From positions 50,406,001-50,470,000 of the forward strand of contig CM060734.1 in the NCBI GenBank assembly GCA_030704615.1: 64,000 nucleotides of DNA, read 5' to 3'. Shown one piece after another: positions 23,701-64,000 of this stretch (position 1 is its first letter; each line of letters begins with the position of its first letter). A program made the translations under genes and the position numbers. Below the pieces are notes generated by a model. That model saw nothing but the letters and a program-made list of their open reading frames with translations. It made no database searches and was not told the origin of the DNA. The stretch comes from Takakia lepidozioides (Eukaryota > Plantae > Bryophyta).

Positions 23701-26700
23701 TCCATCCCCATTAGCATTATTCTCTTTCCTAATGTGTCCTTGCCTGTTCCATTCAGGCACATCATCTGGTTCATCAATTGGTTTGCCATATTGTGTTTGT
23801 CAGTTCTTCTTGTCAATATGCTCCCCTATGTCTTATGTCTTATGTTTGATTCTGAATTGAATCAGAAGATTTTTGTCAAACAGCGAGGATGCTATACTGG
23901 AGACGACGTCAATGTCTTCCAGCACTCCAGTCTCTCCCTTGTTCATGAGTCCCTGCATTCAGTGGATAACAACCTCTGCTCTTTTGTTTTGCAGTTGTTG
24001 ACTAGGCTAGTGTTCGAGCGGGGAAGCGCAGATGCAGCTGGGAAAGTTGCAGATATAATGGGAGCGGATTTGGTGCACCAGGTATTTATTCCACCCTAGA
24101 GAGAATGCTTAATCATATCACTTCACTGGATAATGCATGTGTGCAACTGTCTGCAAGTTGGTAGGCAGTGTTGTTGAGTTAAATATTTTGAGCTTCTGAG
24201 AACAATGTTGCTGAGAGAAAAAGGAAAGTTAATGTCCTCCCAGTAGATATTCATTAGTTAGCTATTCAATTTTCGAGTATAGCTGCCTACAGGAAAGTCA
24301 TAGACCATTTGTTTAAGGAGTCGATGTACCCTCTTCCACATGCTTTCTTGCTTTTTGTTACCCATTCTCAAAGATTACATGCGTGGAGCACTAAACTAAA
24401 GCTCACAACCCAGGTGACTCTTCTAAAAACTAATAAATACTTTTGCAGGTAATCTCAGCATGTGTGCCCCCGGTCTACCCTCCCCGGAGAGGCAGGGGTT
24501 GGGCATGCATCCCACAACTCCCCACACGCACAGTGCAGCCTCCCAGCAGCCAACGGGGGGATGTCCACATCGTCGCTACGACCTCTCCAAATGAAGATGA
24601 GACAGAGCTATATCCTCTACAGATAGACGTCATAAAACACCTTGCCACACTGTCACCTGTGCGCGCCATTCTTGCCTGTGTATTTGGCCAAAGCCATTTC
24701 AGTACAAGCCCCAGGGATACCAGTGATGCAGATTCCAGCATCCCACAGTTGGCACAACAACAGCTGGATGCTGATCGGTCCTTTTTTGAATTTGCCTTAG
24801 AGCAGTCTGAGCGGTAGGTTGACTTTTGGGCCTTCTCTTTACAACATTGTTCTGTTAAGTTTATCATGGATCTATGATATTCTGTGCCATATCTCATGCC
24901 TAATTACTGAGCTTTGACCAGCTTGAAGGTCTGTTTATCCAATATATATCCAGTGTATCCAGAAAGAATCAACAAATACACTGCTTTCAGACCTTCAGTC
25001 CTTCCTCCTGCGGTCCACTTATTTCAGTTGATGCAAGGATGTCTTACATGTCCTACTGGTGACATTTCTGGTCTCTGCATGCTCTTAATAAACATGCTAA
25101 GCAGTGACGGACAATGGGGATTGCAGTTACTCAACGTTGAACCGGTGGATCCAACTGCAAGCAAATTTGCAACATTTGTCTGGTTTACCAACCTCCTCTC
25201 GACAGCTTAACGAGGACCCTAAGAAGGAAGAGGAGAGACGTGCTTCAGCAAAGCGGCCCCGTGCAGCAGAAGAGGATTCTGACTCATCTTCTGACAGTGA
25301 TGAGAAACATGTCTTGCTGGGAATGCCAGGCTTAGATGTGGGATGGACCCCCGAATTTTGCAGCCCACAGGCTCATGAAGGGGTGCCACCAGCATCCAAG
25401 GAAGCCAGGGGTCCAGAGCCAAGTACTCCTTTGTCCCTTTTATTTGACTGGGAGCACGAGGCCCCCTATGAAGATGCTGTTCAAAGGTAGGTGAAGTCCA
25501 TTTTTGTTTGTGCAACATCCCATTGCCATGACAATGGGAGTCAAACCCCATCTGTTTTTCAAGCTAAGACACAAGAGAAATGAAATGAAATGGTACTTTA
25601 TAATGTCTGCGGAAAGCTCTAAGAGCTTATCTTTCTTTCTTAGATAGAGGAGCTTTCCACGGACGGAAATGAACTGAAATGAATGAAATGGTGCTTAATA
25701 ACGTCTGCGGAAAGCTCAAAGAGCTTATGGAACAAAAAAATGGGAAAAAACAAGAGATTGTACTCATAAGACGTTGTTTGCCGTAGCCTTGTGGCCATTG
25801 ACCCCGCGCCCAGTTTGAGCGGGAACAAAAGGGACAGAACCTACCTCTGTCAGGGGCTGACGTTGGTAGTAAGACTTACCTTCATATAAAGAATTAATCC
25901 GGGTTTTCCAGATATCCTCTAGAAATCCCTTCACACAAGCATCAATCTGCTGTGTGTGATTTGCCCAAAAACTAGGCCTCAGGAGGGCCTGGGCTTTTGA
26001 CTCAGCCTCGAGACTTTCAAAGTTGGTAAATAGGGGTACAGGCACAATTCCCTTGATAGAGTTGAAGATTGTACTCATAAGACGTTGTTTGCCGTAGCCT
26101 TGTGGCCATTGACCCCGCGCCCAGTTTGAGCGGGAACAAAAGGGACAGAACCTACCTCTGTCAGGGGCTGACGTTGGTAGTAAGACTTACCTCCATATAA
26201 AGAATTAATCCGGGTTTTCCAGATATCCTCTAGAAATCCCTTCACACAAGCATCAATCTGCTGTGTGTGATTTGCCCAAAAACTAGGCCTCAGGAGGGCC
26301 TGGGCTTTTGGCTCAGCCTCGAGACTTTCAAAGTTGGTAAACAGGGGTACAGGCACAATTCCCTTAATAGATTTGAAGAGAGCGTCTCTTTGGTGAGAGA
26401 ACCCCGGACAGTGTATCAGAAAATGAATACTGTCTTCAGATTGCCCACACAACGGGCAATTGCACTCTCCCTTTCCTCTCTGCTTCTGTTTGCTGTTCAG
26501 AGGTAGGCTTCCTGCCCTGAGTTTAAATTTCAGTCTAGTGCCGAGAGTGGGTAGACCCTTGAGGTCATCCAAGATGTCCTCCCCCATGTCACAGACTGGA
26601 AACAAGTTCAGGGAAGTTTTCTGCCTAACTTCATTTTCATCAGACAATTTCATGGCAACAGACATGGCTGAGGACACTACAGCCTCTAAGTCAGATTTAT

Positions 26701-29700
26701 CCAGCAGGGTCAAGACTTGCGGATCCAGGTCCAGGTCCTTGAGGATCTCTTCTACTCTCTTCTGCCAGGACTTAGCCTGTTTGACAGGGCGGTCCTGTTT
26801 CCAAGATATAGAGTCGATTAACTTAGGATATCTGGTGTTGGGCATATGTTGCAGCTGACCCCACCATCTGACCTTGAATTCATCTCGTCGGGAGCTTAAG
26901 GACGGAATGCCAAACTCACCCCGAACAGCCACATTGGCTGTTTTGGAGCATGCTGACATACACTCCTTAAGCACCCCCACTTGAATGGATTCTAGAGACT
27001 TAGCCTGGTTGGAGTTATCAACCCATATAGCAGATCCGTACTCCAAAGCAGGTCTAATAACGCGGCAAAGCATGGTTTTCTTAACCTCAGAGTTGACCCC
27101 TCTGCAGTGGAAAAATTTAGTGAGCCCCAGAGCTTTGCGCTTGCCAGTTTGAACAACTTTCCGGATATGTGCATCCCAATTACAATTGGAGGAAAATTCA
27201 ACAGAAAATGGAGGAAAAAACAAGAGAAATGAAATGAAATGATATGGTGCTTTATAACAAAGAAAGAAAGAAGACAGACAGAAAGAAGAAGACACCAGAC
27301 ATAACCTGCGTATTGAAAAGCCTCTTCCTCTACTGAAGTTTTCCCTCTCTCAAAAGGGTGGGCTCTGCATGGAAATCGCCCATCTGTGCGTCTAGGGTCG
27401 TTAGTTGTTTGGTATTTTAAATGTGTTTGGCATGTACAAGGGAGCAAATGGCTATGAGACGAAATGATTTGAGCAGTCAAGGATTGCACAGTATGGAACT
27501 GTAGCTTGTATTAAGAAGTTCCAGATTTTGATCATGAATGCTGCCATGGATGCTCAGTTAGAGTGGCAACAATCCAGCCTGTCTTGTATGGCCTTATGAT
27601 CATGTACACTTGTCTATTTTCACGCTTGTTTAGGAAGTGCTTGAAGCAAGTTATATCAATGTGCTGATCGGCTGAACCTGGTACTGTGCGTTGCTGAATC
27701 ATTCATGCTTGATTGTGTTTAGAAATTCACAAAGCCGTTGTGTTACATTGCTAATCACGTGAAACTGGACATTATGGTGGTTCCAGATTGCTGGAGGAGG
27801 GAAAGCTTGTGGATGCATTGGCACTGGCTGACAGGTGGCTACGTGATGGGGCCTCTGACGGATTGCTTCAGTTACTGATTGAAAGAGGTGAGGAGAGTGG
27901 ATCACAGACTAGTACTCAATGGCAAGGTTACAGCGCTACACATCTGTATAGCAGCAGCTGGCAGTACTGTATTCGCATCCGCAACAAGAGCCTGGCAGCC
28001 ACTCTTGCCCTTAAGTACGTGTTCAGCACCAATCTACCGCAACACAACCGCATCTTAACACTGAATTCTTACAAGCTAGTAGACAACTTTTTAGCTCAAC
28101 AAGAATTTCCACCATCACAACTTTTTGGCAACATGAAAGGGCATGTGGTGTTTCTCTTGCATAGCTGAGACGGGCATGTTTTACAGATACTTGCATCGTT
28201 GGGAGCTGGATGCAGCAATTGATGTGCTCACAATGTGCAGCTGCCATCTATCCTCTGATGACCTCCTCTATAATGAGGTTCTTACCTCCCCTCCCTCCCA
28301 TGCAGGGTAATATCAATTTTGTTGCATGCATCTATGCTCACTTAGGAGTTCAAAGTACTGTAGACAGCTTGTGTAGTCTGAGTTTATTTTGAAGCTAAGT
28401 CACCTGAAAATCAAGGTGTAAGGGCATCCGTATCAATGGGCTAGGGCACCACTTTGCGTGAAGTCAAATGCTGATGGAGTGGGTGTATGCAGGTTGTGCG
28501 GAAGAGACAGACACTTCAGCAATATGGCCGCATTCAGCGGGCTGACAGTCGGTTCACCAATTGGCAGGAGGTGCAGCATTCTATTGCATGAATTATCTTT
28601 TTCTCTGGTGTACCCACTCAGTCCTTAGACCATTGGTTAAGTATCATTGCCCACAGAATGTCCGTACAGCGGGTAACATTTATGAAACAGGAACTTGCAA
28701 GGCACAACAAAGCAAGCAAGGATGTTTACATTCTTCCCCAGGTGGGAGGAGAGAAAAAGGAAGAAATAATGTTCAACACCAATGGGGAGGCTTAGAGGGC
28801 CTATGGACGCTGTAGAACAACAAAAGAAAGACCTATCAAGCCCTAAAAATTGTGGGACAGAAAAATGAAATGAAATGGTACTTTATAATGTCCGCGGAAA
28901 GCTCCTGGGACAAAAGGGAGAAACCAGAAAGAAGTGACAAAACCACAGCCAAAAGCAGCCCAGAAGCAACTACTGCTGAAGGACGGAGAGAATGTACTCC
29001 TATGACGTTGTTTGCCGTAGCCTGGCCATTGACCCTGCGCCCAGTTTGAGCGGAACACAAAGGGATGGAACCTACCTTTGTCAGGGGCTGACGCTGGTAG
29101 TAAGACTTACCTTGGAATAAACAATTGATCCGGGTTTTCCAGATATCCTCTAGAAATCCCTTTACACAAGCATCAACCTGCTGTGTGTGGTTTGCCCAAT
29201 AACTAGGCCCCAAAAGGGCCTGGGCTTTTGGACACAGAGAGAGAGAGAATGAACAAGCTTCCAAGAAAAGAACTGACTTGTTTCTGAATTGTTTTGATTA
29301 GGACACTACATGTCTAATCTTATGCAGGATCCGTGTTCTTGCTGATAAAGGTTGTCTGTTATTAGGAGCTTTTCACCCTGAAACAAGTCTTACACTGGCT
29401 TGCTCTTTACAGGTGGAAGCACTATGTCAAAGTGATCCTGAAGGGTTGGCTCTCCGGCTAGCAGGCAAGGGAGCTGTATCAGCTGCACTTGATGTAGCCG
29501 AATCATTCAATTTGTCCAATGATTTGCGGAGAGAATTACAGGGCAGGCAGCTGGTGAAGCTCTTGACCTCTGACCCAATCAGTGGAGGGGGGCCCGCTGG
29601 AGGCTTGCGCTTTCTAAACTCTTTACGGAAACCAGAGGATGCATTGCCTGTGGCTATGGCAGCAATGGAGCAGCTTCCAAATCTGCAATCAAAACAGCTC

Positions 29701-46677: not shown

Positions 46678-47900
46678 TCACCAGTAGTCCCCATAAGAAC
46701 GAACACCATCTGAACACCATCGAAGTGGTGAAAGTGGTTGGCATCCCGTACCACAATTGCTCGGCCAACAATCTTTGAGATGAACTTGGTGGCTGTGTGG
46801 CAGTCACCACACACCAGGCGAAGATTCTTGATCAGATGGAGACGCGTCCCAAGGGCCGTGCTGATCAGCCCAAAACCAATGGCCAGCTTCTCACTGTGGT
46901 GGCAGAGAGAAAACTCCTTCCCCACATCATACCCTGCCTCCTTCATCTGCCCAGACAATTGTCTCAGCTCAGCATGGATTTCCCCAATTTGGGGATGCAA
47001 TTGTCATCGACAACAAAGGTGTGCACCCTGTTGCCACCCTCAATGCATCAGCGACCTGGCTCCCTTCTAACCCCTCTGACTTCCATCATTTTTCACATCT
47101 TTGCAGTATCATCCCACCTGCCAGCTGCGGCATAGATGTTTGATAGCAACACATAAGTCGCAACATCCTGTTCATCCCACTTGAGAATAGATGTTGCCGC
47201 AGGTTCAGCCATCTTCACAGTGCCATGGATTCTGCAGGCACCTAGCAAGGCCTTCCACACCATAGCATCTGGTTTATTGGCATTGAATTAATAAGGTTCT
47301 CTGCCTCATCCAAATGCCCCGCACATCCAAGAAGGTCCACCATGCAGCCAAAGTGCTTTAATGTCAGAGTGACACCATGATCTTGACTCAGGCAATCAAA
47401 GTAGCGTTTCCTACATCCAGTAGGCCAACATGGCTGCAGGCAGAGAGAACACATATGAAGGTGATACTATCCGGCATCAAGCCTTCCGTTTGCATTCCTT
47501 CAAATAGTTGCAGTGCCTCTCTATGATAACCATGCTGGGCGTATCCTGAGATGCACAGCCCGGTATAGGTGGGCAGTTGTTGCTGGCACAAAATGAGATC
47601 TCCAAAAGCGTATATCTGCAAAGCCTCCATCCCACAACCATGCTGGGCGTATCCTGCAATCATCGCATTCCAGGACACCACATCTCGTTCAGCCATGTTG
47701 TCAAACATTCCCTTTGCATTCTCAATACTGCCGCATTTGGCATACATGTCCACCAGGCCAGTGCTCAGAATAACATCCGGTACCGTTCCCGCTTTGATGA
47801 TGTCACAAGGACCTCTTTGCCCTTTTCCAGCACTCCCAGGCTCGCCACATGCATTGCAAACACAAACGACAGGTTGGGCTTCAGACCTTCCCCTATCGGG
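46678..47900 (-). pseudogene. PLS-class PPR protein with E/E+/DYW deaminase domain, frameshifted
   Basis: LVDMYAKCGSIENA...RDVVSWNAMIAGYAQHG, CMVDLLG.AGHLDEA, YVLLSNIYAAAGRW, HSEKLAIGFGLIST, CGDCHTATKFISKIVGR and terminal GDYW*. Several frameshifts and stops. Confidence 0.92.
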
Positions 47901-47934
47901 CATAGGCAGTCCTCCCCTTACAGGAAAAGAAAGA

Positions 47935-48915
47935 GAATGAAATGAAATGGAACTTGTAACGTCCAAAGAAAGCTCAAAGAGCTTATGGGACAAAATGGGA
48001 AAAAACAAGAGAGAGAAAATAGTAACAGAAAATGGATTTTGTCTTCAAGCCGTCTGCACACCAGGCATTGACTTTCCTCTCTGCATCCGTTTATTGTCCA
48101 GAAGTAGACTTCCCACCCTGAGCTAAAATTACAGTAGTGCCAAGGCAGCCCTACACTCATCCATGTCACAAACTGGAAACCAGTTCAGGGTAACTTTTGT
48201 TCGGACATTCTGCACGCTTCCAACATGGCCTTAGACACGTCAGCTTCCAATCAGCTTCATCTTAGCAGGGCTATATTCAGGTACTCGAAAATCTCCTCTT
48301 CCCGTTCCGCCAGGGCTTCACCTACGGGGTTGGACTAGATGTTGGCAGATCCACTGCCTTTGTCTCCAGACACAATCAGGGGTTCAGGCAGCTGTCCATC
48401 CACGCATCCCAGACCCAGCCCAATTCTCTGAACCTTTTTTCTTGAAAGAACCTCCCTCTTCTCAGGCCTTCAGACATGCAGGAGCCAGTTCCCATTTCGG
48501 GCTTAGAATCCACAATGCTCCATTTGTAGTACTTCCACCCTTCCTCATCAGCTCCCACCCCTGACCACATGAACATAATGTACTCATAAGATGTTTTCCG
48601 TAGCCTTGTGGCCATAGACCGTGCGCCCAGTTGGGGCTGAACAAGAGGGAACAGACACTACATCTGTGAGGGTCTCACACTCCAGTTGTGGGACTTACCT
48701 TGATATAAACAATTAATTCAGGCTCTCCAGATTTCCTCTAGAAAGCTCTTCACACAAACGTCAATCGGCTGTGTGCGATCTGCCCAGCAATTAGACCCCA
48801 GCAGGACCAAGGCTTTATGTTCAGCCTCAAGATGTTGAAATTTGATGAACAGAGGTGCAGGGATTATGTACCTGATGGTCTTATCACTCTCTGATGAGAA
48901 TACCCCGGACATTGT
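47935..48915 (-). mobile_element. LINE-B tail (47935-48000) and LINE-A fragments (48100-48300, 48578-48915)
   Basis: CATTT tail; CWADRTQPIDVCVKSFLEEIW; terminus CTTATGAGTACAT. Confidence 0.75.
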
Positions 48916-48924
48916 AAGAGAAAA

Positions 48925-49215
48925 TGGATATCCAGCCTCCTTTAAATGCAAAGACAATCTCCTCAGCTCAGCATGTATTTTTTCAATTTTTGGATGTGAT
49001 TTGTCATCTACACAGAACGCATGCACCTGGTTCTCCACTTCAATGCAGCTGTGCCCTGGCTCCTTTCTCACACCTGCATCCTCCATCATCTTTCTTACCT
49101 TTGCTTGATGATCCCACCTCCCAGCAGCAGCGCACATATTGGATAGGAGCACATAAGATCCAGCATCTTCTGTATTGCACTTGAGAAGGCATTTTGCAGC
49201 TTGTTCGGCCCCAAA
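48925..49215 (-). pseudogene. Second PPR E/E+ domain fragment
   Basis: AEQAAKCLLKCNTEDAGSYVLLSNMCAAAGRWD...VRKEPGHSCIEVENQVHAF...HPKIEKIHAEL...KEAGY, cut off by LINE-A. Confidence 0.85.
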
Positions 49216-50275
49216 GCCCCCAGAAATCACAATATCACCAGCTTTGGAAATAAGATCCATGGCTGGGTTTGCATATATATAATCACTGAAGTATGGGTTG
49301 AAGGGAGGTGTGCGAAGCCTATCGCACATATGGGGCAGCAATCGTAGCATCGTAACTCCAATTTAGTACATGACATGAAGGGGTTCCCCTTTCACAACCC
49401 ACAACCTGCGGCAGCAGGAACAGGTCCTCCACCAGTCCCTAATACTCCTTTGCTTCCTTCTGCAGCCCGGACATTTGCAAGTCATTGACTTCCTTCGTCA
49501 GTGTTGTTTGGTCATGGTTAGTCCTAGCAACATGGACAGCAAGCACCACCAGAGCCCACTCTACAATCTCCAGACTGCAAACATAAGCTGGGTTAGCATC
49601 TGTGTAAGTCTGGACATGTTCGTTGTTCCACATCGTGTAGAGCCCAATGGAGCCCAAAACAACTTGCATGAATGTTGTTGAAAGCTCACTAGCACCCCTC
49701 AGTAAAGGACCTTGTCAAAATGTTGATGCTGTCGGATTTTCGAGCACAAACCTCTACCTTGGAGCACGGAGCAGAGCTGGCATGATCAAAGATCCTTCAC
49801 GATGGTAGGACAACCGCAATTGCAAGGTGTGGTTTTTTCTTAATGTACGATGTGAAGAAGTTTGTCCATCCTGCAAATGTGGGCTCTTGGCTCCTGTTAG
49901 TACCATGATTTGGTATTCTTCCTGATCTTTACAAGGTTCTTGGGAGAGTCAGCTTGGTCTTAGCAGGCCGTGTTTCAATCTCTGCCTGCTCAGCTGCACT
50001 GTGGTGGTTCTCACAGACCAATCCGACATTACCTGACTACAGACACAAGCAGCACACACAAGAGATCCTTTTGGGATGATGGTCGGTCACATCCTCCATG
50101 GGTCATGACACAAGGTCAAGGACAATGTGGTGAGGGCACATTCTTCTTCGACCTATTTCAGCGTGTGTTGCCCTCTCATCAAACTCGGCCTTGAGATGCA
50201 TATTGAATTCTGTAAGTTACGGTGGATCTATGGTGGTTTGGAGTGACTTTGACAAGTTACTGCCGATGTGGCAGC

Positions 50276-50620
50276 AGGAAAGTATCAAGAAACAGATAAC
50301 AGAGATGAGGAGAAGCTTTGGAATGAACACTTTTCCGACCCCAGTCAATGGTGGGACAATGGAGACAAAAAGGTCTACAGAGAGAAGCAGATGCAATTCA
50401 GAATTGGAACTTCTGTAATAAGTAGGGTTGGGGTGTTTGCTAGAAGAACTTCACGCCGTCAGTGTCAGCTGCTAGTAGCACGGCTGAGGATGTATTCATG
50501 ATTTGTACACAGGCAGGGATAGCTGAAGGATCAGGGATAGAGGTCCAGATTCATCCAAGAGGGTCGGATATCAAACACAAGATTACTTTTGATTCCCTGT
50601 GGATCAATAGCTACAACCCC
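50276..50620 (+). pseudogene. Two exons encoding an OSB-type PDF motif (orphan)
   Basis: KLWNEHFSDPSQWWDNGDKK | intron 50373-50548 | IHPRGSDIKHKITFDSLWINS matches the PDF-motif consensus LW..FF.NP.EWWDNR..K.NPR.PDFKHK.T...LW. Confidence 0.8.
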
Positions 50621-51241: not shown

Positions 51242-52488
51242 CGAGCTCCTTCATCGCTTTAGGACTGAGTGTGCTTATGATGGGAGTGTAGGTTGTTGTG
51301 GGGTGGAGTCCCCATAGCTTGGGGTGCCCCTAGCTCGACTTCTATTTTAAAGAGTGACAGCGATGGATTCATGTTGTTTCTGGTGTGAACAGTGTGTTCT
51401 TAGTTTTCTATCACTCGAGAGAGATGAGCCATCTAGTTTTCTAGTGCTAAGCTAGATATGATGTTTTTTTTAGCACTATTATAATATAACTTGGTAATCT
51501 ATGAGTCCAAGAGATATGTAGATCCCCACATTCTTCTATTTTCTCTGTGGGTTCTTGCACTGTTGGGGAAGTCGGGTCTTTTCGTCTGTCCAAGGCTCTC
51601 AACCACAAGTATGCGTCTCATTCAAGCTATGTTAGGGACTCAATCTTGGAGCTGACAGCCGCTGCCGTGTTTTTTAGGCTGTGAGCGAATCAGTTTGTAG
51701 TTTGCTGCGACGTCTTCAAAAGGGCCTGCGTCAGGTTGTACTTGTGTGGGAAATCTTGATCAATCTGCTTTGAGGTCCGTGGAGCAGCCCTAAGCAGTGG
51801 CGACAGGAGAGTTCTTGTCTGCCACATCCTTCCGCGGTGAGGAGATGGGGACGATGCAGAAGATTTTGTTGCAGGGAAGAGAATGGCGTAGCCAGACTGA
51901 ATGAAGCAGAGGAAGCGACGTGGAGGGGATGACATTGAGACGGCAGCAGAGGCTCAGCTGTGGAGGCAGTTCACATTAGCAACGTGGCTTTACCGAATAC
52001 AGCAGCTTTCTGGACAAGATGCTTGCGAGGTTGTAGGGGTCAGCTGCAAATGCTAAATGCTACTATGTTCACTTGCAGGTAGCTTCTGCGACAATCTAGT
52101 ACAAACAACATGCACAATTGTAGCAGAAGCATGGTCAGACGAGTTCTCCAGGAAAGCTCTAAAATGCACAGGACCATTTCTGCTCCGTCTAATGGGTATG
52201 CTGTGTCTGTTGCAGCAAAGCTGTGACAAGCAAATTGTAGGCAGATCACCTTCACCTGCATGTGGTTTCATGTGCTCTTTGGAGACTTGTGTCTCTGTTC
52301 CTTATGAAAGGGCTGTTGCTATGGATTGTGACTGGTGATGCTCAGTTGAGTAAAGGAACGAAGTTCACTCCTCCGATGTTTTTGTGTGCAACCTAGTCTG
52401 TAATTGGTGCCAACCTGGCTTAGGGGGCAGCTGGCTTGTAGCTGAGGTGAAGAGCCGGTTGAATGCGACCATTGGGGGCTCTACCCAC

Positions 52489-52917
52489 ATTCTCCATACA
52501 CTCAAGGGTCCCAGCAGTAACGGGCTCCACAATCAATGCGTCCTTGAGCTTTCCATCATCATCTTTTTGAAAGCAGTGAGCCAAGCCTAACACAATATAG
52601 TCATCGTCATTCCAGTCTAGGTCTTCTCCCACGGCAAAAGCCTTGGCAATCGCACAGGAAGGTTTTAGACTGTGCCTGGCAAGTTTAGAAAAACGGACAG
52701 AGGTTCCCGTCAGTGACGGCTCTACAAAAGGAGAGCGAGAAAGACGACTTCCTGTGGATGATGAAGCTGGCTCTCCCAAGTAACCCTCCGTCAAGTGAAC
52801 TGCATCTACTGGAGCTCGGCTCGACGAAGCCTTTGCTGACGATGCCTCTCTGTTGGAGATGGCGTCTACCGCCAAACCAGTTTTCAAAGCCTTCGAGTAA
52901 CCTGCTACAAACGCCAT
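52489..52917 (-). CDS. First exon of a probable plastid-targeted, cyanobacterial-type conserved hypothetical protein; later exons not found
   Basis: ATG at 52917. A Ser/Ala/Arg-rich transit-peptide-like N-terminus is followed by DDDYIVLGLAHCFQKDDDGKLKDALIVEPVTAGTLECMEN, then a GT donor at 52488. Confidence 0.6.
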
Positions 52918-53433
52918 CGAAACAGCTACAGCCAGAAAGCGAAGCGAAGAAGACAAAAGACGTTGATGAGTGTAGAAGGATAGCTTAGAAACTGATGGAA
53001 AAAGGCCGAGGTGGGCTGTCACAGGTATTTGCCATACAGGTGAGTGGGCTCCGTGAAGACCTCAAAAAAAAAAAAAAACATGCCGGCACCTGTGCACTGC
53101 ATAAAAGCAATGGAGAAGGGAGCAGTTTTTAATGGCGAGAAAGTTTTGGTGTTAAAAAAATAATTAAAAAAAAAACCATTTTGATCTAATTTAAATGATT
53201 TAGAGCCTAATTGGTCATAACTTTGTCAAATGAGCTCTGTTTGACTCAGTTTTTGTGGGGATGGCTGTAGAAAGGGGAAATCTACTTATCTAGACCTGGT
53301 TTTAGGTTTTTGGACTCTGCTACAAATCTATGGAATTTTTTTGAGTGTGAGGGTGCTATAAAAGATCCACAATCCTGTTTCTAGAACCTGTTCTGGTCTA
53401 CATGAGAGATAAATCTGGGGATGTACTCCTTGT

Positions 53434-54183
53434 ATGGTTGGGGGAAATGAGGACGTAATTGAAGGGCAGGTCTCTTCTCTTAGCCTGTGCACCCAAGGGG
53501 ACAAGATTTATGTTTCCCAAGGAACTCAGACTGATTTGAGTGAAGAACAGTTGGACGAGTTGATTGCATACTGGGAGTCAGGCATTAGCAGTAGACAACA
53601 GACTGCTGTAGTTGGCATTGAGGGCCTCAATATCGCCTTGGACAGTCAGAACTCTGTTGGAGCCAGCAGTTCTGCAGCTGTAGGTGAAATACAAAAGTGG
53701 GTGAAAGCTATGCTTGGGACACAGCCAAAGACAGCCCCGGAGACCAAGGTGTTTAGCCACAAGGCCGTGGTGTATTGAAGTAGAGGAGCAGGAGCTACAC
53801 AAGTTTGTGCAATCAGACAGCGTTGCAGCCGGACACGCTCTGCACAAGGCAACCACAAGCGGGGGTTCATTAGCGAGGACAAGTTTGTTTTGTTTGAAGG
53901 AGATGCAGTCATTCGCAATGAGGACACCCGCAACCGTCTCAAAACTTTCGAGTTGAGAGACTATCAGACCCTACCTTTGTTTTCTTTAGTGTTCAGTGAG
54001 CGGGAGATAGCAGAGTGTTGCTTTGTCTCTACCTGGCAGAAAGAGGAGGAGGGTTGGTTAGAGCGAGCTACTGTAGCTTGGGACAAGGTTAGTGGCAGGT
54101 TTCTGGACATAGATATACCTCCTACACCTTACCATCATGCAGAGCGAGGCACTTTGAGAGAAGTCTGGCAGTTGATAGCATAG
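53434..54183 (+). CDS. Unknown ~250-aa ORF upstream of gag, with one in-frame stop
   Basis: ORFs 53434-53778 and 53890-54183 are in the same frame, with only the TGA at 53776-53778 between them. Confidence 0.5.
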
Positions 54184-54703
54184 ATCAGGATTAGATCTTG
54201 CTTGGTCGGGCTTCTATTCTTCTCCTCCATCTCTTTACTATTTTCATTACTTTGCACTTGTAGTTGCCAAAGCCTCTCTTGGTGGAGGCCAGTCAGTCCG
54301 GGGTTTTGGGCTGGGATATTCTGCAGGATCAGCATTGCAGCTGGATTTTGGTGTGGGGGTGTAGATGTTTTGATTTCTCGTGTTTGGATCCCTCCCAACA
54401 TCTGCATGCTTGACTGTGCGCCATGTTGGTTTTGTGTGGGCGTTTGCTTTCATAGGGATTAGGCCGGATTTGATCACCGGTCAATCCTAGAGTATGTTGT
54501 CGGTGGTGAGGCTGGAGTGATGACCAGCAAGACCACCAGTGTTTGTTCTATGGTGAGGCTGGGTTGATGACCAGCCAACCATAGGAGTTCTTGCGGTGGA
54601 TGCAGGTGCAGGTGCCCTGAGCCATTGGGATATGACCCTTAAACTGCAACAGGTGCCCACCCGTGTCACTATTAGAATCAGTACTAGAGCCCTATAGTGT
54701 CAC

Positions 54704-56790
54704 GTGGAGGAGGTGCACATTGTGAATGTCATCACGGAGTTACCCAAGGGTTTTGAGGGGAGTACGGCTACAGGCAGTAACAGTGAGAGTGGGTTCACAA
54801 GACGAGGTATTCGGTTCAGACCACCTTCACCGCCACCCTCAACTACTGTAGAGTCAGACATAGACTCGGAGGCTTCATCAACAGGTGTGCAGTTTCATTC
54901 GCCATTGTTGTGGGACGACATGGAGGAGATGTATGGAGCTACCAAGGGGCTTCGTAGGTACTCTAGAGCTGTGGGCACAATCGAGTTGGATGACTTTATC
55001 CAGGAGTTTGATAGCTGGTGTGATTTGCAGCGGATGCGCAATCCACAGCTATTCACCCCATTCATGGCGTGGAAGGGACTGTTCCAGCATTTGGAAGGCC
55101 CGCCTATGGACGATTACCACGAGTTCAGGCGAGGACATGAAGCAGAAATTGAGGAGTGGAGGATGTATTGGTCACCTGACTACGTCTCCATTACTCGAGG
55201 CATGACGCGACCAGTAGCTGCATCAGTACCAATATCTCCCACTGCCAGCACTAGTAGTGGAGCAAGTAGTGCCGGTACTTCTGCAGGTGGTACCAGTTCA
55301 AAATGTGCTACTACTCCTCCTGCCACAACTACAACACATGTGCCTAGATTCAACCCGGTGGTGGAGTTCTTCCAAGAGTTGCGGAGGAACTACCAAGGTG
55401 TACGGACAGAGAAGCTGCGAAGTTTGCAAGACTTCCAGCGCAAACCCAGTGAGAGCTTGCGAGAGGCCTACACTCGTATGAGGCGCTTGCTAAGTGTGAC
55501 CCAAGGGGTTACTGAAGCTCAAGCAATCCAGTTCTGGTATGGAATTTTGGACAAGGAGCTCAGGAGAAGGGTGCGGGATGCAACCCTATTACAAGCAGCC
55601 CAACCCACATTAGCAGATGTGTTTCTGCTGGCTGAGCGGATTGAGCTCAACATGGTGGAGGAGCGAGTTGTTACCATTGGGTTTGGCAAGGACATGCCTG
55701 CACGAGGCGCAGCTGCCAGCCCACAGGTACAAGGGATTGCCCAACAGCGTGGTCAAGGGGGCAAGGTTTCCCAACCCAAGTTCCATGGAGCTTACAGGGG
55801 ACCTCAGGTGCAGAAGCCCGTGGCATCTTTTGCAGGCCAACAGTAACCAGGGGTGATATGTTGGACATGTGGAGGACCCCATGTCAAGAGAGATTGCCCA
55901 GAGACTGGCAAAAGGCCGGCACAAGCACAACATGCATAGTTGCAGTGTGGGCATTGTGGCAAGTATGGGCATAGAGATGCCCAGTGTTATGACTTGCATC
56001 ATGAGTTGCGCCCAGGCCAGTTCCAAGGGAACAATAGTGGCCGGGGGCGAGGTGGACCAGCCCAGAGAGGACGAGGTGGTCGAGCACGAGGTGCATGCCA
56101 AGGGCAAGCTCAACATGGCCAAGGACGCGGTGGTCAGGGTGTTGACCAAGGCATGGCCAACCGGCTTCAGCAGCTAGAGCAGAGGCTTGCTGCAATGGCT
56201 ATAGCTCAGGCGGTACCGGCTCCCAGGCGGGATGGTCCACCTCCTGCTCCTGAGGGAGGAGATATGGGAGGCATGGGATTCATGTGCGGAGCAGCACTAC
56301 CACTAGTGCAGGTGGAGTCTGCTGCAGCCGTGACTCAAGGAGCAGCACGAGTTCCTGAGCCACGAGGTGCAGAGGTGGAATTGGATCCACAGCGTGGGGA
56401 GGCAAGCTGTCAGGCGAGGCTTCCTCAGTCATTCACATTGGCGGAGACTGTGTCGACGCCATCCATGGCACCTAGTTCTCGCCTGACTGTTACCGAGGCG
56501 GAGGTTACTATGCCATTGGGGAGAGCTACACGTGCAGCACTGACACCTGCTACCAAGGCTAGTGCAGCCGGTGTGTTATTAGGGGCAGCCACCTTTGTGT
56601 GTCAAGCCCCACTGTTCTCGGCAACCATGATTGCGACACCGGGGGTAAGGCCAGCTGTAGTGTTCAGACTAGCAGCAACACTCTGTGAGAGTGGGGAGGT
56701 CACTTCATCTTCTGCGGAGTTACTGGAAGGTGTAGTGGCAGAGGGATCCTCAGATTTGAGGGTCAAGACTGCCATGGCAAGCTGCAGCTG
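54704..56790 (+). CDS. Gag with two zinc knuckles (premature stop at 55844-55846)
   Basis: FQRKPSESLREAYTRM...QFWYGILD.ELRRRV is retrotrans-gag-like. CWTCGGPHVKRDC and CGHCGKYGHRDAQC are followed by an RG-rich tract. Confidence 0.88.
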
Positions 56791-56795
56791 CCAGG

Positions 56796-57270
56796 TTGAC
56801 GGAGCTGCCAGCTAGGCCAGCCTTTGAACGCGCCATGGTGACACCTGGAGTTGTCTTGTTAGACAACCAGGATGGCATTTTCTCTTTGAGTGGACCAGCA
56901 GGCAAGAAGTATCGGCCACTGCGGGTCTTGCTGGACTCGGGAGCTCAGCCACTGATGTTGGGCAGAGCTGCTATTGCAAGTTTGGGCCTCATGGAGGCGG
57001 ATATGGAGCCTTATCCTTTCCAGATACAGACATCTCTGGGAGGATCAGAGCTGGCTCGGGGCATGACACGGCGTGAGTTGGCCATTGGACTACAAGCAGA
57101 TCATCATGTAGATGACTCAGTGATGCGAGCCAAGGCCATTGTGACACACGCGGTCTCTTACGATGTCCTCGTTGGTGGGGCAGTCACCCTGGACTTTTGG
57201 GAGGAGTCAGCATCCTACATGCCTGGATGGCAGTCAGGGGATGGTCATCGTGCACAGCTCCCTGTGACAT
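56796..57270 (+). CDS. Retroviral-like aspartic protease
   Basis: VLLDSGA (DSG at 56934-56942) ... YDVLVG. Confidence 0.88.
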
Positions 57271-57629
57271 TCATTGGGGGTATTGCGGCTGCCCAACGGG
57301 GCAAGATGCCAACACTAGCCGCCTTTACAGCTGCAGTTAGTTGGCCTGGAGAGTTGCTGGAAGGCAATGCCCATGCAGAGGATGTGCCACCTCCAGCAGA
57401 GCAGGATGACATGCATGGTATGGCGGAGTTGCCCGCCATGGTTGCTCACACTCCATTGTGGGGTACGAGCAAGGATTTGCAGCAGGTTGCTGATCGACGG
57501 GTGCAACAAGCCTGGGTAGAGGCTTTTGTACCGTCAGGAGAGGAGGAGAGTGCGGGTATTGCACCAAGACCACCTCAGTTGTCACCATTGGATACCACAC
57601 CTATTGTATGGCAGTATATGGATGAAGGC

Positions 57630-58580
57630 ATTTGCCTTCTGGACTTGTTTGGCGGGATCAGCACCGGATTGGCTGCTGTGCTACAGGCAGGTGTGTGGGT
57701 AAGGCGTTACCTGTATGTGGAGAGGGATGAGACTGCACGACGCGTCTCACTGCGCCATGTGGCTCAGTTGGTTTAAGCAGTACCCTGACTTGTTGCCTGA
57801 GTCTGCAGTTCGTGGATACCAACAAGCCTTGCCAGCAGACATTTCCTTGTTGGGGGCGCAAGATTTGGAGCAGGTTGGCTCCATTGATCTGATAGTGGCA
57901 GGTTGGCCCTGCCAAGGGCATTCATCAGCCGGGCATGACAATGGATTGCGAGACTCGAGGACGGGTCTGTTTTGGGAGATGGTGCGGGTTTTGCGCCACT
58001 TGCAGCTTCATCAAGCTGTATCCCCAGCATACATCTTGGAGAATGTGCCACTGATGGGTGATTCTCGGGCCAGGGTGATGGCCAGTGTGCATCAAGTCCA
58101 GTCGTGGCTTGGGTCAGCAATGCTGCTGGATGCAGCTGCAGTGGGATCACGGGCTCATCGTCCACGGCTTTGGTGGACTAACTTGATGCCACCCGCACTG
58201 CTCAAGCGTGCATTTGATGGGGTGCAGCGGCCAGCACACCTCACCGTGGATGGCATTTTGGACACAGGGATGCAGTCTCAACGTGTGAGACACAATGACC
58301 GTTCGCCTTTGGCAGTGGTCAACAGGGTGGGTCAACCACGAGCAACATTACCTACACTGCTCAGCTTCCCAGGATCCCATGCTTTTCGGGATGGTGGACC
58401 TAACCTCTTGTGGGATAGCCAGTTGCAACAGTTAGTGGAGCCTAATGCCGACGAGCGAGAGCGGGCTATGGGATTTTCCACTGGGACCACGGCGGTGCCT
58501 TCTCTTTCTGAGGCATCACGTCGTCAGGTGTTGGGGCAAGCAATGGATCTCAATTGCTTGACCTGGATTATCAGCTTGGC
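57630..58580 (+). CDS. C5 cytosine DNA methyltransferase catalytic domain (DNMT3/DRM-like) inside pol; 1-nt frameshift at ~57772
   Basis: Motif I LLDLFGGI, II YVERD, III ADI, IV DLIVAGWPCQG (PC at 57907-57912), V GLFWE, VI ILENV (ENV at 58039-58047), VIII AHRPRLWWTN, IX ERERAMGF, X RRQVLGQAM. Confidence 0.93.
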
Positions 58581-58878
58581 TATGGCTGAGCAACGTAGAG
58601 TGCGGAGTGCACTTCCTTTGACGGTCTCTCTGCCTACCGAGACGGTACAGGCAGCGAGTGGGGGCGAGCCGGTGAGGACCACGAGGTGTAGACATCCATG
58701 GCACACGTGGGAGGTGCTCGAGGTTCAGAGGGAGTTGGCAGCCAAGGCAGCTGTGATGGATGAGGTTGGGGATTCTTCTCGGGATGAGGAGGTTCTCAAT
58801 GATGAGATGATGGGGCAGGATGAGGCCTTGTCATTGACTGAGCAGGAAGGGAGTACTGCTCAAGAGGTTGCAGCATAG

Positions 58879-61800
58879 CAACCACGTGACGCGTTCTCTA
58901 CCTCTAAGCCCACTGGACTTAAGGTTGCAGTTACGGAGGACAATTGGGAGCCTGACATTGGACCCATTGTCACCGGAGGAGAGAGACGACGTATACGGCG
59001 GTTCCTGAGGGCTTACAGGAATTGCTTTGCCTTCAGTTTGAAGGACTTGGGAGCACTGAAGGGTCAAGAGATCCGTATTGAGTTGGCCACTGACACGCCA
59101 ATCTTTCGGAGACCCTATAGATACAGTGACATGGAGAGGTCTTTGATTCAGATGAGGACTCAAGATCTCTGGGAGGCAGGTTTGGTGGAGCTCTCTGGTG
59201 GAGAGTATGCTTCAGCCACAGTGATGCCAGCCAAGAAGGATGTCTATGGCAATTGGACGGAGAGACGTATGTGCGGTGATTACCGGCCTGTAAATCGTCA
59301 GACCAAGTCCGATAGGTATGCCATGCCGACACCAGAGGAGATCTTTGATGCCATTGGGCATTCCAAGGTCTTTAGCACGTTGGATTTACGATCCGGATAT
59401 CACCAGTTGCCGATCAAGGAGGCGGATAAGCAAAAGACGGCATTCTGGGGGATCAATGAGCACGGGAAGGATTGTCTATACCAGTGGCGGTTCTTACCAT
59501 TTGGGCTTAAAAACGCTCCCGCTGAGTTTCAAAGAGTCATGGACAGGATTCTAGCAGGGGTGGAGTTTGCTCGGTGCTACATAGATGACATCATCATCTT
59601 TAGTGCTACGGTAGAGGAGCATGAGAGACACCTTCAGGGGGTATTTGAGCGCTTAAGGACGCACGGATTGAAGTTACATCCGGGCAAGTGCAAGTTTTTC
59701 CACAACCAGATTGAGTATCTGGGTCACATGATATATCCTGGAGGATTGGGGGTACAGCAGACTAAGGTAGAGACCATTGCACAGGTTCCACGCCCCACGG
59801 ATGTGAGCCGAGTTCGAGCTTTTATGGGGTTAACAAACTATTACAGACGGTTTGTTAAGGGATTTAGTGCCATTGCAAAGGCTCTAACCAAGCTGACCAA
59901 GGTGGACCAGGAGTGGCAGTGGGAAGATGAGCAAGAACAAGCTTTTCAAGAGCTCAAGGCGAGGTTGACCTCGGCGCCCATCTTGAGACGACCTATCAGG
60001 GGGCGTCCTTTTCAGCTGCATACAGATTGGAGCATGCTGGGGCTTGGAGCGGTGCTCACACAGGTGGATGATGAGGGAAGAGAGTTCGTAGTGGCTTATG
60101 CTAGCCGCTCGAACAATGCTACAGAGTCTAAGTATAGCTCATATGAGGGAGAATGCTTAGCTGCAGTGTGGGTCGTGGCACACTTCAGGTGCTATCTATA
60201 CGGCAATCTCTTCACCCTTGTCACGGATCACCAACCACTCAAGTGGTTGATGGAGTCAGACAAGCTTACGGGGAAGCTTGCACGGTGGGCACTCATCCTT
60301 CAAGAGTATGACTTTCAGGTGGTGCATCGACCGGGTTTGGTCAATCGCAATGTAGATGGGTTGAGTCACAATCCATGCACGAGCCAGCAGGATGACACTG
60401 GAGCTCGGTGGCATGGTGAGACGGACGAGGAGATGGTGCCCGGATGGCATGCATCTGCATTTCTGTGTATCTTGGCAGCGGAAGGCCAGGTTGGACCTGC
60501 AACAGGGATGACTGTAGATCAAGTGTCTGAGGACCCTGAGGCCAGCAATGAGCAAGGTGGTGCCAAAGATATACATGAGGATTCAGTTGTGTTGGACTGC
60601 CTCAGCACTGGAGACACTGCAGCCACTGTGACTGCCAAGGAGAGGGATTGGATCCTACAACGAGCCAAGAGGTTCAAGTGGGAGAGGACACACCTGCTCC
60701 GAGTGTGGGAGGATGGTCGAGTGAGGATTGTGCCTCACCCAACACAGCGGGCACAGTTAGTGCGGCATGCCCACGAGGAGTTGGGGCATTTTGGGGTGCG
60801 ACGCACCCATAGCCTACTGCAGGGGCAGTATTGGTGGCGTGGTATGCACACAGAGGTGCAACAATTTGTGGCTAGGTGCATGGTGTGTGACAGGGTGCGT
60901 GCATCATTCAACGCCCCTACTCCACAATTGCACCCTCTTCCGATCATGGGATTGGGCTATATGTGGAGTCTTGACTTCGCAGGGCCGTTGCCACTGACCA
61001 TGCGTCACAACAAGTACGTGTTGGTGATGGTGGAGCACTTCTCCAAATGGATTGAGTTGGTTCCATTGTCTGATAAGGCTAGTGAGGGAGCTGCGTATGC
61101 ATTCTTGGATTGTGTGCTTAGCCGATTCGGTGCTCCAGCTGAGGTACTCACGGACCAAGGGAGAGAGTTCTTGGGGGAGTTTCAGGTTTTGTGTGACAAG
61201 GCCTTGATAGACCACCGCACCACTTCTCGGGATCATCCTGAGGCCGATGGCTTGGCAGAGAGAGTTGTTCAGACAGTAAAGAGGGGTTTGCGCAAGTATG
61301 GCTTGCAGAAGGGACACCTAGGAGATTGGGACCTTCAGTTACCCTGGTTAGCCATGGGCTACAGGTTCAGCAAGCAAGCATCACTTGCCTCCTTCTCACC
61401 ATACTTTCTTCTCTTTGGCCGAGAGCCGGATTTGCCTACATCCATTCGCAGAGAAGCTGCTACAGTTCTTAATCTTGACGATCCGGACGTGTGAGCACGT
61501 GCATGTGAGCAGCGTGCAGAGTTGTTCAAGAAAGTCATGCCCATGGCTTTCGAGAACTTTGCCATTGCACAACACCGTGATACGTTGAGGTATACTACCA
61601 TACGTGGTGGGGGCTATCGTCCTGGGGTTCGGAGATTCAACCCTGGTGACTATGTCTATCTGCAGCAGACTGCTCCTACGACCTTGGATGTGACTGCAGG
61701 ACGTGTTATTTTGAGGGTTCGAGAGGTCTTGCCCTCAGGCGTCTTGGTCTTGGAGGGTCGGGATGGTATAACTTGGAAGGACCATGTGCGTAATTGTGTG

Positions 61801-62013
61801 CCATGTCACCTTCCGAATGTCGATGGCAGGATTGACCCAAACCTGGCAGTGGTATCTGCAAGTTTGAGGTGCATGTTGTGTGGGTCTGCTAAAGGGGCAG
61901 CCACCATGCTGGTGTGTGATCGATGCTCTAGAGGTTGGCATATGGGATGCTTGACTCCACCTCTTGAGATGGTTCCGGATGGGGATTGGTTATGTCCACA
62001 ATGCATTGGATAG
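58879..62013 (+). CDS. RT - RNase H - integrase - PHD finger (premature stop at 61492-61494)
   Basis: RT: LDLRSGYHQ, LPFGLKNAPAEFQR, YIDD (59578-59589). RNase H: LHTDWS...ECLA...TDH. Integrase: H..GH...CMVC, SLDF, TDQG, GLAER. C4HC3 PHD finger at 61870-62004. Confidence 0.95.
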
Positions 62014-62389
62014 TGGGAGTGGATACAACCATGGAAGGCTAACAAGCAACGCAAGGCCCAGCTACATGAGACCTTGAATACACGAGGTCCTGGCTCAAGT
62101 TCACAGATTGCAAGACGGCGACTAACGATGGGGCTACTCTTGTACCCGGCCTCTTGGTCAATAGAGTTTGAGTACAATAAGGATAGTGATAGAGGACTTA
62201 GTACGGCTGTGGCTATTACATCTTGTAGCTATCTGGAGTTAGAGGGACCTATCCACCAGCTAGGGGGACAATTGTGGCAGACTACTTTATTGTGCATATA
62301 TGTGTGGTGTGGTTTGGACAGCGATGTAGTTGTGTAGCAATACGTATGCGCACGACAACATGGATGAATGGAGGAGGGATGCGCTCCGG

Positions 62390-62712
62390 ATGATTTAAGG
62401 GATCATAGGTAATCTTGAGCTTGAAATCCGGCCCTCTTGGATGAATCTGGACCCAAACTCTATCCCTGCTCCTTCAGCTATCCATGCCTCTGCACAGATC
62501 ATGTATACATCCTTGATAATAGCAGCTAACAATGACTGCCTAGATTTCTTCTAGCAAACACCCCAACTTATCACACTAGTTCCTATGCTGACTTGCGCTT
62601 CCAACAGGCATTCACCTTTTTGCCTCGATTGTTCCACCCTTGACTGCGGTCGGAAACGTGTTCATTCCAGAGCTTCTGCTCGTCTCTGTTATCTGTTTTT
62701 TGATACTTTCCT
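62390..62712 (-). pseudogene. PDF-motif exon pair, inverted copy
   Basis: KLWNEHVSDRSQGWNNRGKK | intron | IHPRGPDFKLKITYD. Introns are homologous to those at 50230-50600 and 62960-63290. Confidence 0.8.
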
Positions 62713-63005
62713 GTTGCCACATGGGCAGTAACAAATCAAAATCACTCCAAAACCACCATGGTTCCACCAAAGAGCTAACTTGTAGAGTTCAACATGAAAA
62801 TTTAGGGACGACTCTGATAACAGGGAAAAACAGGCTGAAATGTGTTGAAGAAGGTGCCTTCATTAGCAATGCTTTGTTCTATCAATTGTGCTGCTGCCGA
62901 TGCTGTTTCCAGTTGACCATCTACCCACACTGCAAGTTAGCTGGTTGAGTGAATCTACGATAGTTTGGAGTGACTTTGCCATGATATTGCCCAATGTGAC
63001 AACAG

Positions 63006-63885
63006 GAAAATATCCAGAAACAGGTAACAGAGACGAGGAGAAGTTGTGGAATGAATATTTTTCTGACCCCAGTCAATGGTGGGATAGCTGAGGCAAAAAG
63101 GTGAATGCCTATTTGATTACAGAGAGTAGCGGATGCTATTCAGCATAGGAACTAGTGTGATAAGCTGAGCTGGGTGTTTCCTAGAACAAATATAGGCTGT
63201 CATTGTCAGCTGCTAGCAGCAAGGCAAAGATGTATGCATGATTTGTGCAGAGGCAGTGATAGTTGAAGGAGCAGGGATAGAGTGTGGGCCTGCATGGGTA
63301 GATGGTCAACTGGAAGTGGCAGCTGCACTGGCACAGTTGATAAAATCAGGCAACTTCTGGAAGAGGATCAAGAGAGGGAGTCCACAATGCCTCTTCTGGC
63401 ACTTCTGGGCATGTGAAGATGCTTTGTGAGGCAGGCAGACTGAAGAGGCTCTACAGACTTTAAACCAAGGAGGCAATTCAGCATATTCAGATACGTATGT
63501 CTGTGTCTTGCATAAGTGCATCAAGATGAAAGGCCTGGAAGTTGGAAAGCAGGTGCACACTCACATTATCCAAAGCGGATTCACGCCAAATGTTTATCTA
63601 CTCAACACCAACATGTACGTTAAGTGCGGGAGCATCATGGATGCTCACCAAGTGTTCAACAGAATGCCTCAACGATCTTTGATCACGTGGTATATAACAT
63701 TGGCAGGATTTACCAAGCATGGGTGTGGTACGAATGCTTTGGAGACCTATGAGCAAATGATGCGCGAAGGGGTGAAGCCCAACCACATCAAATTTGTTTG
63801 TGTTTGCAATGCGTGTGCAAGCCAGGGAGCCTTGTTGGAAAAGGGGAAAGAGGTCCATGGTGACATCGTCAAAGCTGGTAATCCT
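63006..63885 (+). pseudogene. PDF-motif plus PLS-class PPR gene fragment
   Basis: KLWNEYFSDPSQWWDS*GKK | intron | ...PAWVDGQL... then YVCVLHKC...GKQVHTHIIQSG...MYVKCGSIMDAHQVFNRM...W...AGFTKHG...FVCVCNACASQGAL. Contains stops and a deletion. Confidence 0.8.
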
Positions 63886-64000
63886 GCAAAGATTGTTACT
63901 GAGTTGGTCCGGCCCCCAGAAAAAATCTCTGTCAGGGCATACTGGCCATGTGTGGCCCATTTAGACATCAATAAACAAGCATAAAGGGGAGCACAAACAG

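Follow-up and report, generated by a model that had tools for sequence, protein, structure and literature searches.

A PHD finger at the integrase end and a DNMT3-like methyltransferase in a Ty3/Gypsy family of green algae and bryophytes

Introduction

Chromoviruses are Ty3/Gypsy elements that carry a histone-reader fold, the chromodomain, at the C-terminus of their integrase (PMC6317226). PHD fingers have likewise been described as widespread in retrotransposons (PMC6673714; 10.1101/2021.11.30.470311), and Gypsy-7a_cRei and other Chlamydomonas elements are reported with a PHD in Gag-Pol, multi-part LTRs and a proposed avoidance of harmful insertion (PMC9940879, PMC8557442). As for enzymes that write rather than read, KnitGypsy-Dnmt3 of Klebsormidium nitens, published in 2018, is a Gypsy element with DIRS-like split repeats and an intronless DNMT3-like domain with its catalytic residues; methylation of cDNA was the role proposed for this enzyme, and its expression in yeast gave no visible activity, an outcome that the authors deem inconclusive (PMC5890265). 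EpiLTRs, or DAM-LTRs, bring a reader and one or more DNA methyltransferases together in a single LTR element (10.64898/2026.05.21.726589). A PHD in Gypsy, a DNMT in Gypsy, and a reader plus a writer in an LTR element are all already in print, separately.

Here we analyse a stretch of 64,000 nucleotides from Takakia lepidozioides (hereafter the window), in which an earlier note had placed a canonical PHD finger at the integrase end, in place of a chromodomain, within an element that also encodes a DNMT, and had likened the pair to the ADD-methyltransferase module of DNMT3.

Results

Element structure and decay

The window holds one copy of a Ty3/Gypsy element, with the following features:

53120 to 62357, forward strand: decayed Ty3/Gypsy element of a high-copy family (from contig depth, contig loose ends and the 3' end; 5' end approximate)
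54698 to 56815, forward strand: gag region (Retrotrans_gag with a CCHC-like knuckle; PF03732, E 4.5e-4), with stops at 55844 and 55937
56913 to 57131, forward strand: aspartic protease (LLDSG), in a different frame from gag (PF13975/PF13650 at E about 0.002, which does not reach the curated cut-offs)
57630 to 58590, forward strand: DNMT3-like C5 cytosine methyltransferase (PF00145, E 9.1e-14)
58876 to 58884, forward strand: in-frame stop TAG CAA CCA between ORF1 (Gag-PR-DNMT) and ORF2 (RT-RH-IN-PHD), kept in relatives
59263 to 60309, forward strand: reverse transcriptase and RNase H (PF00078, E 1.6e-32; PF17917, E 3.1e-35)
60739 to 61239, forward strand: integrase H2C2 zinc-binding domain and catalytic core (PF17921, E 1.3e-16; PF00665, E 1.6e-13)
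61492 to 61494, forward strand: premature stop that cuts the SH3-like domain and the PHD off the integrase core; relatives are open across this point
61618 to 61821, forward strand: SH3-like beta barrel, the integrase C-terminal domain (AlphaFold2 strands 53-103 and fold matches)
61870 to 62004, forward strand: C4HC3 PHD finger (PF00628, E 1.4e-11; score 44.7 bits, cut-off 24)
62260 to 62270, forward strand: purine-rich tract-like segment (from comparison with relatives)
62271 to 62357, forward strand: terminal repeat B of a split direct repeat (relatives read A...B-A-B)

Pfam domains give the Gag-PR-RT-RH-IN order of Ty3/Gypsy LTR retrotransposons, the family's integrase profile has Ty3-G Gag-Pol as its top PDB match (E 1.3e-32), and the window's RT falls with those of Calypogeia and Marchantia (FastTree support 0.99). 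Contig depth in a same-organism public run is 814 in bin 53100-53120 and jumps to 18,103 in bin 53121-53141; depth over 53120-62357 marks a high-copy repeat and its ends, and is not a copy number. Behind 62357 contig loose ends accumulate in same-organism public runs, and the 3' end, CACGACA, is the same as the ends of relatives. No pair of full direct LTRs was found in the window. Related loci carry split repeats: L011, L034 and L041 close with B-A-B at their 3' end, L008 reads A...B-A, and L017 and L018 stop after B. The window has B only, and some same-organism contigs extend past 62357 through a junction of B-A type (56 loose ends, at a low agreement of 0.46). A profile built from the relatives' 5' regions gave no match to the window's 5' end, and a target-site duplication could not be assigned to this copy; L017 has one of 4 bp. 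Flanking 4-mers fit NCGN, the Phygy target preference, or its decay products in 3/11 cases, and CpG depletion (0.48 versus 0.40) does not set the element apart.

This is a dead copy: relatives are open where it has three stops (55844, 55937, 61492) and where its frame changes, once near 56760-56815 and again near 57773. The gag region is 57-61% identical to the Marchantia ORF1 proteins P0079 and P0081, both open there, and the protease of relatives lies in the same frame as their gag. Within the DNMT, motif I is in the protease frame, while motifs IV (GWPCQG), VI (ENV), VIII (RxR), IX and X are in the next, with the change near 57773. As it stands, the copy has no capacity for an integrase-PHD protein.

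Upstream of gag, in the element's 5' region, lie two consecutive in-frame ORFs of 121 and 134 codons (53413-54183, forward strand), with neither a Pfam match nor a counterpart in the metagenome relatives. Several related loci share an 840-bp insert, near 3250-4130 in L007, L009 and L011 and at 6611-7431 in L034, which interrupts RT or the 3' region and is likely a small nested element. Elsewhere in the window, a 4.4-kb direct duplication (2174-6596 and 19270-23690, 99.5% identity), accompanied by an 820-bp inverted copy (1039-1858 and 18456-19275), is either a recent duplication or an assembly artefact. C-terminal fragments of LINE-like RT occur on the reverse strand at 15015-16280 and 26075-27349 (translations judged by eye). 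The element is flanked on either side by fragments of PPR-like genes and by a host segment that recurs in both orientations (47388-49362 on the reverse strand, 50131-50596 and 62399-63984). An ORF at 52420-53061 (reverse strand, ATG at 52917) is first-exon-like, with a transit-peptide-like start and no match in Pfam or Atlas.

The PHD finger and its distribution

The canonical C4HC3 finger that had been read from the letters is present at 61870-62004: the Cys4-His-Cys3 ligands, the Trp before Cys7 and the cross-brace fold are all found, by Pfam score and by comparison of an AlphaFold2 model with the PHD of ATXR5, its best fold match (Z 10.0, rmsd 1.4, 52 residues). Two codons later comes the stop at 62011-62013, and the finger is, as claimed, the last domain of the polyprotein by order; in this copy the stop at 61492-61494 severs it from the integrase core. 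The AlphaFold model (mean pLDDT 77) gives the order helix, SH3-like barrel, PHD. Fold matches of the barrel are middling, with the PFV intasome (4bac, Z 6.5) and the MLV integrase C-terminal domain (7jyz, Z 6.7) standing among many SH3/Tudor folds. Since the PHD directly follows the integrase barrel, it occupies the position that the chromodomain has in chromoviruses.

The claim of a PHD in place of a chromodomain holds as to this position, but there is no sign of a replacement: no chromodomain (PF00385) was found in the window, in match lists of 77, 51 and 120 proteins, or in Pfam scans of relatives. With no chromodomain in any near relative, a chromovirus with a swapped reader is improbable as the ancestry, and we rejected it.

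Could the finger be a one-off capture? Its recurrence across the family rules this out. All family searches used parts of the element without the PHD. With the 118 residues upstream of the finger as query, 77 proteins were recovered and PF00628 was present in 67 of them; the others mostly end too early or are frame shifted. Among 198 proteins anchored on the DNMT, a PHD follows the integrase in 45 of the 47 that have at least 200 residues past it (15 further integrase-bearing proteins were too short to score); one of the two misses, P0128, has a diverged finger and the other, P0184, has none. The RT-anchored search (120 proteins examined) gave 41/46. Hosts include Marchantia, Calypogeia, Sphagnum, Coleochaete, Closterium, Klebsormidium, Volvox, Pleodorina and Scenedesmus; some Closterium-side relatives (P0425, P0469) lack the PHD. 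The integrase-terminal PHD is a family-wide trait, shared by members in green algae, liverworts and mosses, and the co-occurrence of PHD and DNMT that the earlier note had proposed as a check is strong.

Histone-binding residues

In PHD fingers that read H3K4me3, the cage Trp lies two residues before the zinc His. The window has Gly there (G-W-H), which bears out the earlier reading, and across 124 family PHDs this residue is Gly in 109 and Trp in none. Considering that H3K4me3-reading PHDs have an aromatic cage with a conserved Trp (PMC5415848), neither the window's finger nor those of the family would be classed among them.

The closest solved relatives of the finger are readers of unmodified H3, namely KDM5A/B PHD1, ATXR5, BAZ2A/B, DPF3 and UHRF1. 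Aligned with KDM5A PHD1, the window keeps L309, D312, V330, P331, G333 and W335, which in KDM5A contact A1, R2 and T3, with D312 as the R2 anchor and W335, P331 and G333 as the A1 anchors (10.1101/715474); the ATXR5 PHD employs the same R2 and A1 anchors (PMC5499861). What the window retains is a Leu, the P-x-G-x-W of the H3 A1 pocket and the C-D for H3 R2. This R2-binding Asp after Cys3 is present in 118/124 family PHDs, and within the window's terminal-PHD group (n=20) the A1-pocket Pro is kept in 18, the Gly in 17 and the R2 Asp in 19.

The acidic residues tell a different story. Counterparts of KDM5A D292, E305, D306 and D315 are missing from the window, which has Ala-Ala at the acidic wall and Ser at the second R2 acid; its clade has Ser or Gln where KDM5A and ATXR5 carry the second R2 Asp. 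Acids of the wall, which concern K4, occur in 0/20 of the window's group versus 46/64 in the algal layout, and in a wider set in 7/33 PHDs outside the algal layout. In BAZ2A, neutralising the double acid lowers binding 17-fold (PMC5415848), while ATXR5, which has Pro/Ser at the acidic-wall positions, holds K4 via main-chain carbonyls alone and still prefers it unmethylated (PMC5499861). With the acidic K4 residues and the second R2 acid missing, K4me0 reading is less secure in the window's clade than in the algal members, for which the case for an H3 reader is stronger. The K4me0-type finger of the earlier note thus stands in part, through the missing cage Trp, the A1 pocket and the R2 Asp, and is weakened in this clade by the missing acids. 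Judged from these residues, the PHD is likely a reader of the free H3 tail, possibly a weak one, unable to select K4me3, and a preference for unmethylated K4 is plausible.

Constraint on the finger is modest: pN/pS between the window and eight decayed loci is 0.41 for the PHD, near the 0.48 of the RH-IN linker, and indicates weaker constraint than on the integrase core (0.16). Perhaps the streptophyte PHD has moved away from reading histones and now has a weak role or another one, for instance contact with DNA/RNA or another host protein via a more basic surface. The mean net charge (+0.75 in the terminal-PHD group versus -3.8 in the algal layout), the absent acidic wall and the Closterium-side losses are consistent with such a drift, and yet the A1 Pro and Gly and the R2 Asp are kept in nearly the whole group, and ATXR5 excludes K4me3 all the same with its Pro/Ser wall (PMC5499861). 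We regard this drift as unlikely, and continue with the PHD as a predicted reader of the free H3 tail.

The methyltransferase and the stop between the reading frames

The DNMT of the earlier note is borne out as a DNMT3-like C5 methyltransferase upstream, with DNMT3A as its top PDB match (E 9.1e-16). Counted by alignment column, its catalytic Cys is present in 178/182 family members and its Glu in 179/182. A regex count had given many dead DNMTs in the family, an artefact of Pro-to-Glu variation before the Cys that the column-based count exposed. Three proteins do keep, between RNase H and integrase, a DNMT that lacks both of these catalytic residues: P0034 (Pleodorina), P0038 (Volvox) and P0056. 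An IMG/VR search returned distant methyltransferase matches only (6 loci).

Two layouts exist, with the DNMT before RT in streptophytes and between RNase H and integrase in chlorophytes, and the PHD remains on the integrase whichever side the DNMT occupies. Trees of the 64 elements that have RT as well as DNMT, with six spliced gene models excluded, each split cleanly into 53 and 11 elements, with SH-aLRT of 93.6 for RT and 98.8 for DNMT; the Mantel correlation between the two (r 0.66) is inflated by kinship. As the trees are unrooted, one capture and one move of the DNMT is what we infer from them. In the chlorophyte layout (P0032, P0117, P0233, P0121), Pol reads RT-RH-DNMT3-like-IN-PHD-Tudor-like-DAM-like. 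The Tudor-like piece follows the PHD in 63/82 long algal tails (PF21743, E 6e-8 in P0117), and a methyltransferase-like piece is present in 47/82 (PF02086, E 0.0035 in P0032). Only 14 of these 47 tails have a DPxxGxG-like motif, most being degenerate, and 36 have the DNMT in the same protein; we read them as adenine methyltransferases (DAM) tentatively. A different reader-plus-two-writers arrangement is seen in P0259, a protein lacking both RT and integrase in which a PHD, a PCIF1-type domain and the DNMT of the family are joined.

PHD and DNMT are both encoded in one element, as had been claimed, but in the window's clade not in one ORF: the DNMT closes ORF1 proteins, ORF2 proteins open at RT, and the TAG at 58876 is kept in relatives, a conservation that rules out decay as its origin. 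Of the 25 junction-covering loci, taken from 38 related loci, 22 have TAR-CAR-YY at the stop that comes first when reading upstream from RT, most of the 25 being one family about 90% identical, and L029 lacking the signal; against this, the window's background is 10 of 1,400 stop-like triplets. The TMV-type readthrough signal is UAG-CAR-YYA (PMC2754532). The window's TAG CAA CCA fits this full consensus, with the first in-frame ATG 85 codons downstream. Full CAR-YYA occurs in only 3/25 loci; most have CAA CCC followed right away by an in-frame ATG, so reinitiation is possible there. Ten relatives of the window's layout, K. nitens P0076 included, have the DNMT fused in frame to RT. Considering its sequence context, the conserved stop is likely read through. 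Readthrough would yield DNMT at the level of Gag and integrase-PHD at a fraction of it, amounts that fit methylation of cDNA in the particle and not an ADD-like switch.

Discussion

What might a reader and a writer do in the same retrotransposon? The account we lean towards, with moderate confidence, is that the PHD at the integrase end tethers the integration complex via the free H3 tail, and that the DNMT serves the element separately. In intact members, the PHD would grip the free H3 tail of the nucleosome, with a predicted preference for unmethylated K4, and so help to choose insertion sites; the DNMT, probably translated together with Gag upstream of the putative readthrough stop, would methylate cDNA of the element itself and would not depend on the PHD to be switched on. 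If the PHD does target integration, plants own a second reader-guided integrase beside that of the chromoviruses, and a module of 45 residues offers a direct test of whether H3K4 methylation shapes where transposons land.

A PHD that binds H3 for integration efficiency, or for chromatin control after insertion, would leave the landing site unaffected. Insertion patterns of old copies can mirror selection (PMC6673714, PMC9940879), and the flanks of related loci carry no clear chromatin signal: the flank ORFs scanned, 26 of a longer list, include one PIF1 helicase and weak matches to PAZ and PsbL. The PHD-bearing Gypsy-7a_cRei of Chlamydomonas inserts between genes 2.6 times above chance (PMC9940879), an excess for which selection could account, and the window's copy lies ~200 bp from the ATG of the opposite-strand ORF at 52917, one case unlike promoter avoidance. 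Yet the finger stands at the integrase C-terminus, where chromoviruses have the chromodomain that directs their integration (via PMC6673714). A PHD without any part in targeting therefore strikes us as improbable, and we keep to the reading in which it tethers the integration complex.

The ADD of DNMT3A and DNMT3L, a GATA-like plus a PHD-like finger, regulates in cis the catalytic domain that it adjoins. Here too a K4me0-type reader and a DNMT3-like enzyme share one genetic unit and nearly always co-occur; in the algal layout DNMT, integrase and PHD even share one ORF (median 511 residues apart, 63 proteins), and the ATXR5 PHD touches its own SET domain (PMC5499861). A PHD that, by reading H3K4me0, directly guides the enzyme to the chromatin where the element inserts, or switches it on there, is the parallel drawn in the earlier note, and is nevertheless very doubtful: the DNMT3 reader is N-terminal and adjacent, whereas here a plain PHD sits on the integrase, 471-687 residues (algal) or ~1,090 codons (window's clade) downstream, in the latter past RT, RNase H, integrase and the conserved stop; it stays put while the DNMT moves; each is occasionally lost singly, with PHDs that lack a DNMT (P0064, P0062) or stand beside the three catalytically dead ones, and a DNMT without a PHD in P0184; and shared ancestry alone accounts for their co-occurrence.

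Where does such an element stand among known systems? It belongs to the KnitGypsy-Dnmt3 lineage, with which it shares the intronless DNMT3-like domain, the catalytic residues and the DIRS-like split repeats: the K. nitens proteins among our matches, P0076 (DNMT-RT-RH-IN) and P0467 (with PHD), fall on the window's side of the RT tree, and the window's DNMT is 44% identical to that of P0076. In KnitGypsy-Dnmt3 the DNMT lies within Pol, fused to RT, whereas in the window's clade it ends ORF1 at the conserved stop; the 2018 paper confines the capture to the lineage of K. nitens, but the homologues here span chlorophytes to liverworts and Sphagnum. A PHD is mentioned nowhere in its main and supplementary text, its domain drawings (Fig. 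4c) being outside this scope (PMC5890265). Such a range, with two layouts and congruent RT and DNMT trees, would shift the capture of DNMT3 from one alga to deep green-plant history. The conserved stop, in turn, would offer a first handle on the timing and amount of a retrotransposon DNMT, a matter that the 2018 paper left open, and it points to methylation of cDNA within the particle.

Chromoviruses differ in having a chromodomain as reader, where the window's family has a PHD, split repeats and an extra DNMT; in the portions of a plant LTR survey covered here, PHD and methyltransferase both go unmentioned (PMC6317226). Compared by description only, Gypsy-7a_cRei and its kin list no DNMT, and the position of their PHD may differ, as a legend puts it before INT (PMC9940879, PMC8557442). 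ATXR5, KDM5A/B PHD1 and BAZ2A/B share the fold, the missing cage Trp, the A1 pocket and the R2 Asp with our finger (PMC5499861, 10.1101/715474, PMC5415848). The window's clade differs in having neither the acidic wall nor the second R2 acid, and in the fusion of its PHD to integrase. REM1, too, is reportedly counted among the PHD-bearing Chlamydomonas elements.

Our literature search, with subscription papers, Repbase reports, figures and bioRxiv supplements outside its scope, met no account of a PHD-tipped integrase combined with a DNMT, nor of its two layouts, range or stop signal. It is tempting, if tentative, to see here an undescribed Ty3/Gypsy clade of green-plant age, with the PHD as a second type of histone-guided integrase tip and one DNMT3-like enzyme carried throughout. 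In streptophytes the enzyme would lie before RT; the land-plant clade would have it with Gag, upstream of a UAG readthrough signal, giving packaging at Gag level and pre-methylation of cDNA; in chlorophytes it would lie between RNase H and integrase and, with the Tudor-like and adenine-methyltransferase-like domains added, make two readers and two writers per Pol. EpiLTRs also combine a reader with DNA methyltransferases, and the portions of their description in the main text mention neither a PHD domain nor Tudor, Volvox or Chlamydomonas, supplements being outside this scope (10.64898/2026.05.21.726589). They pair a chromodomain with DAM and a DNMT4-sister enzyme, whereas the window pairs a PHD with a DNMT3-like enzyme and has neither DAM nor chromodomain; the algal Pol with its DAM-like tail would be their PHD-based parallel.
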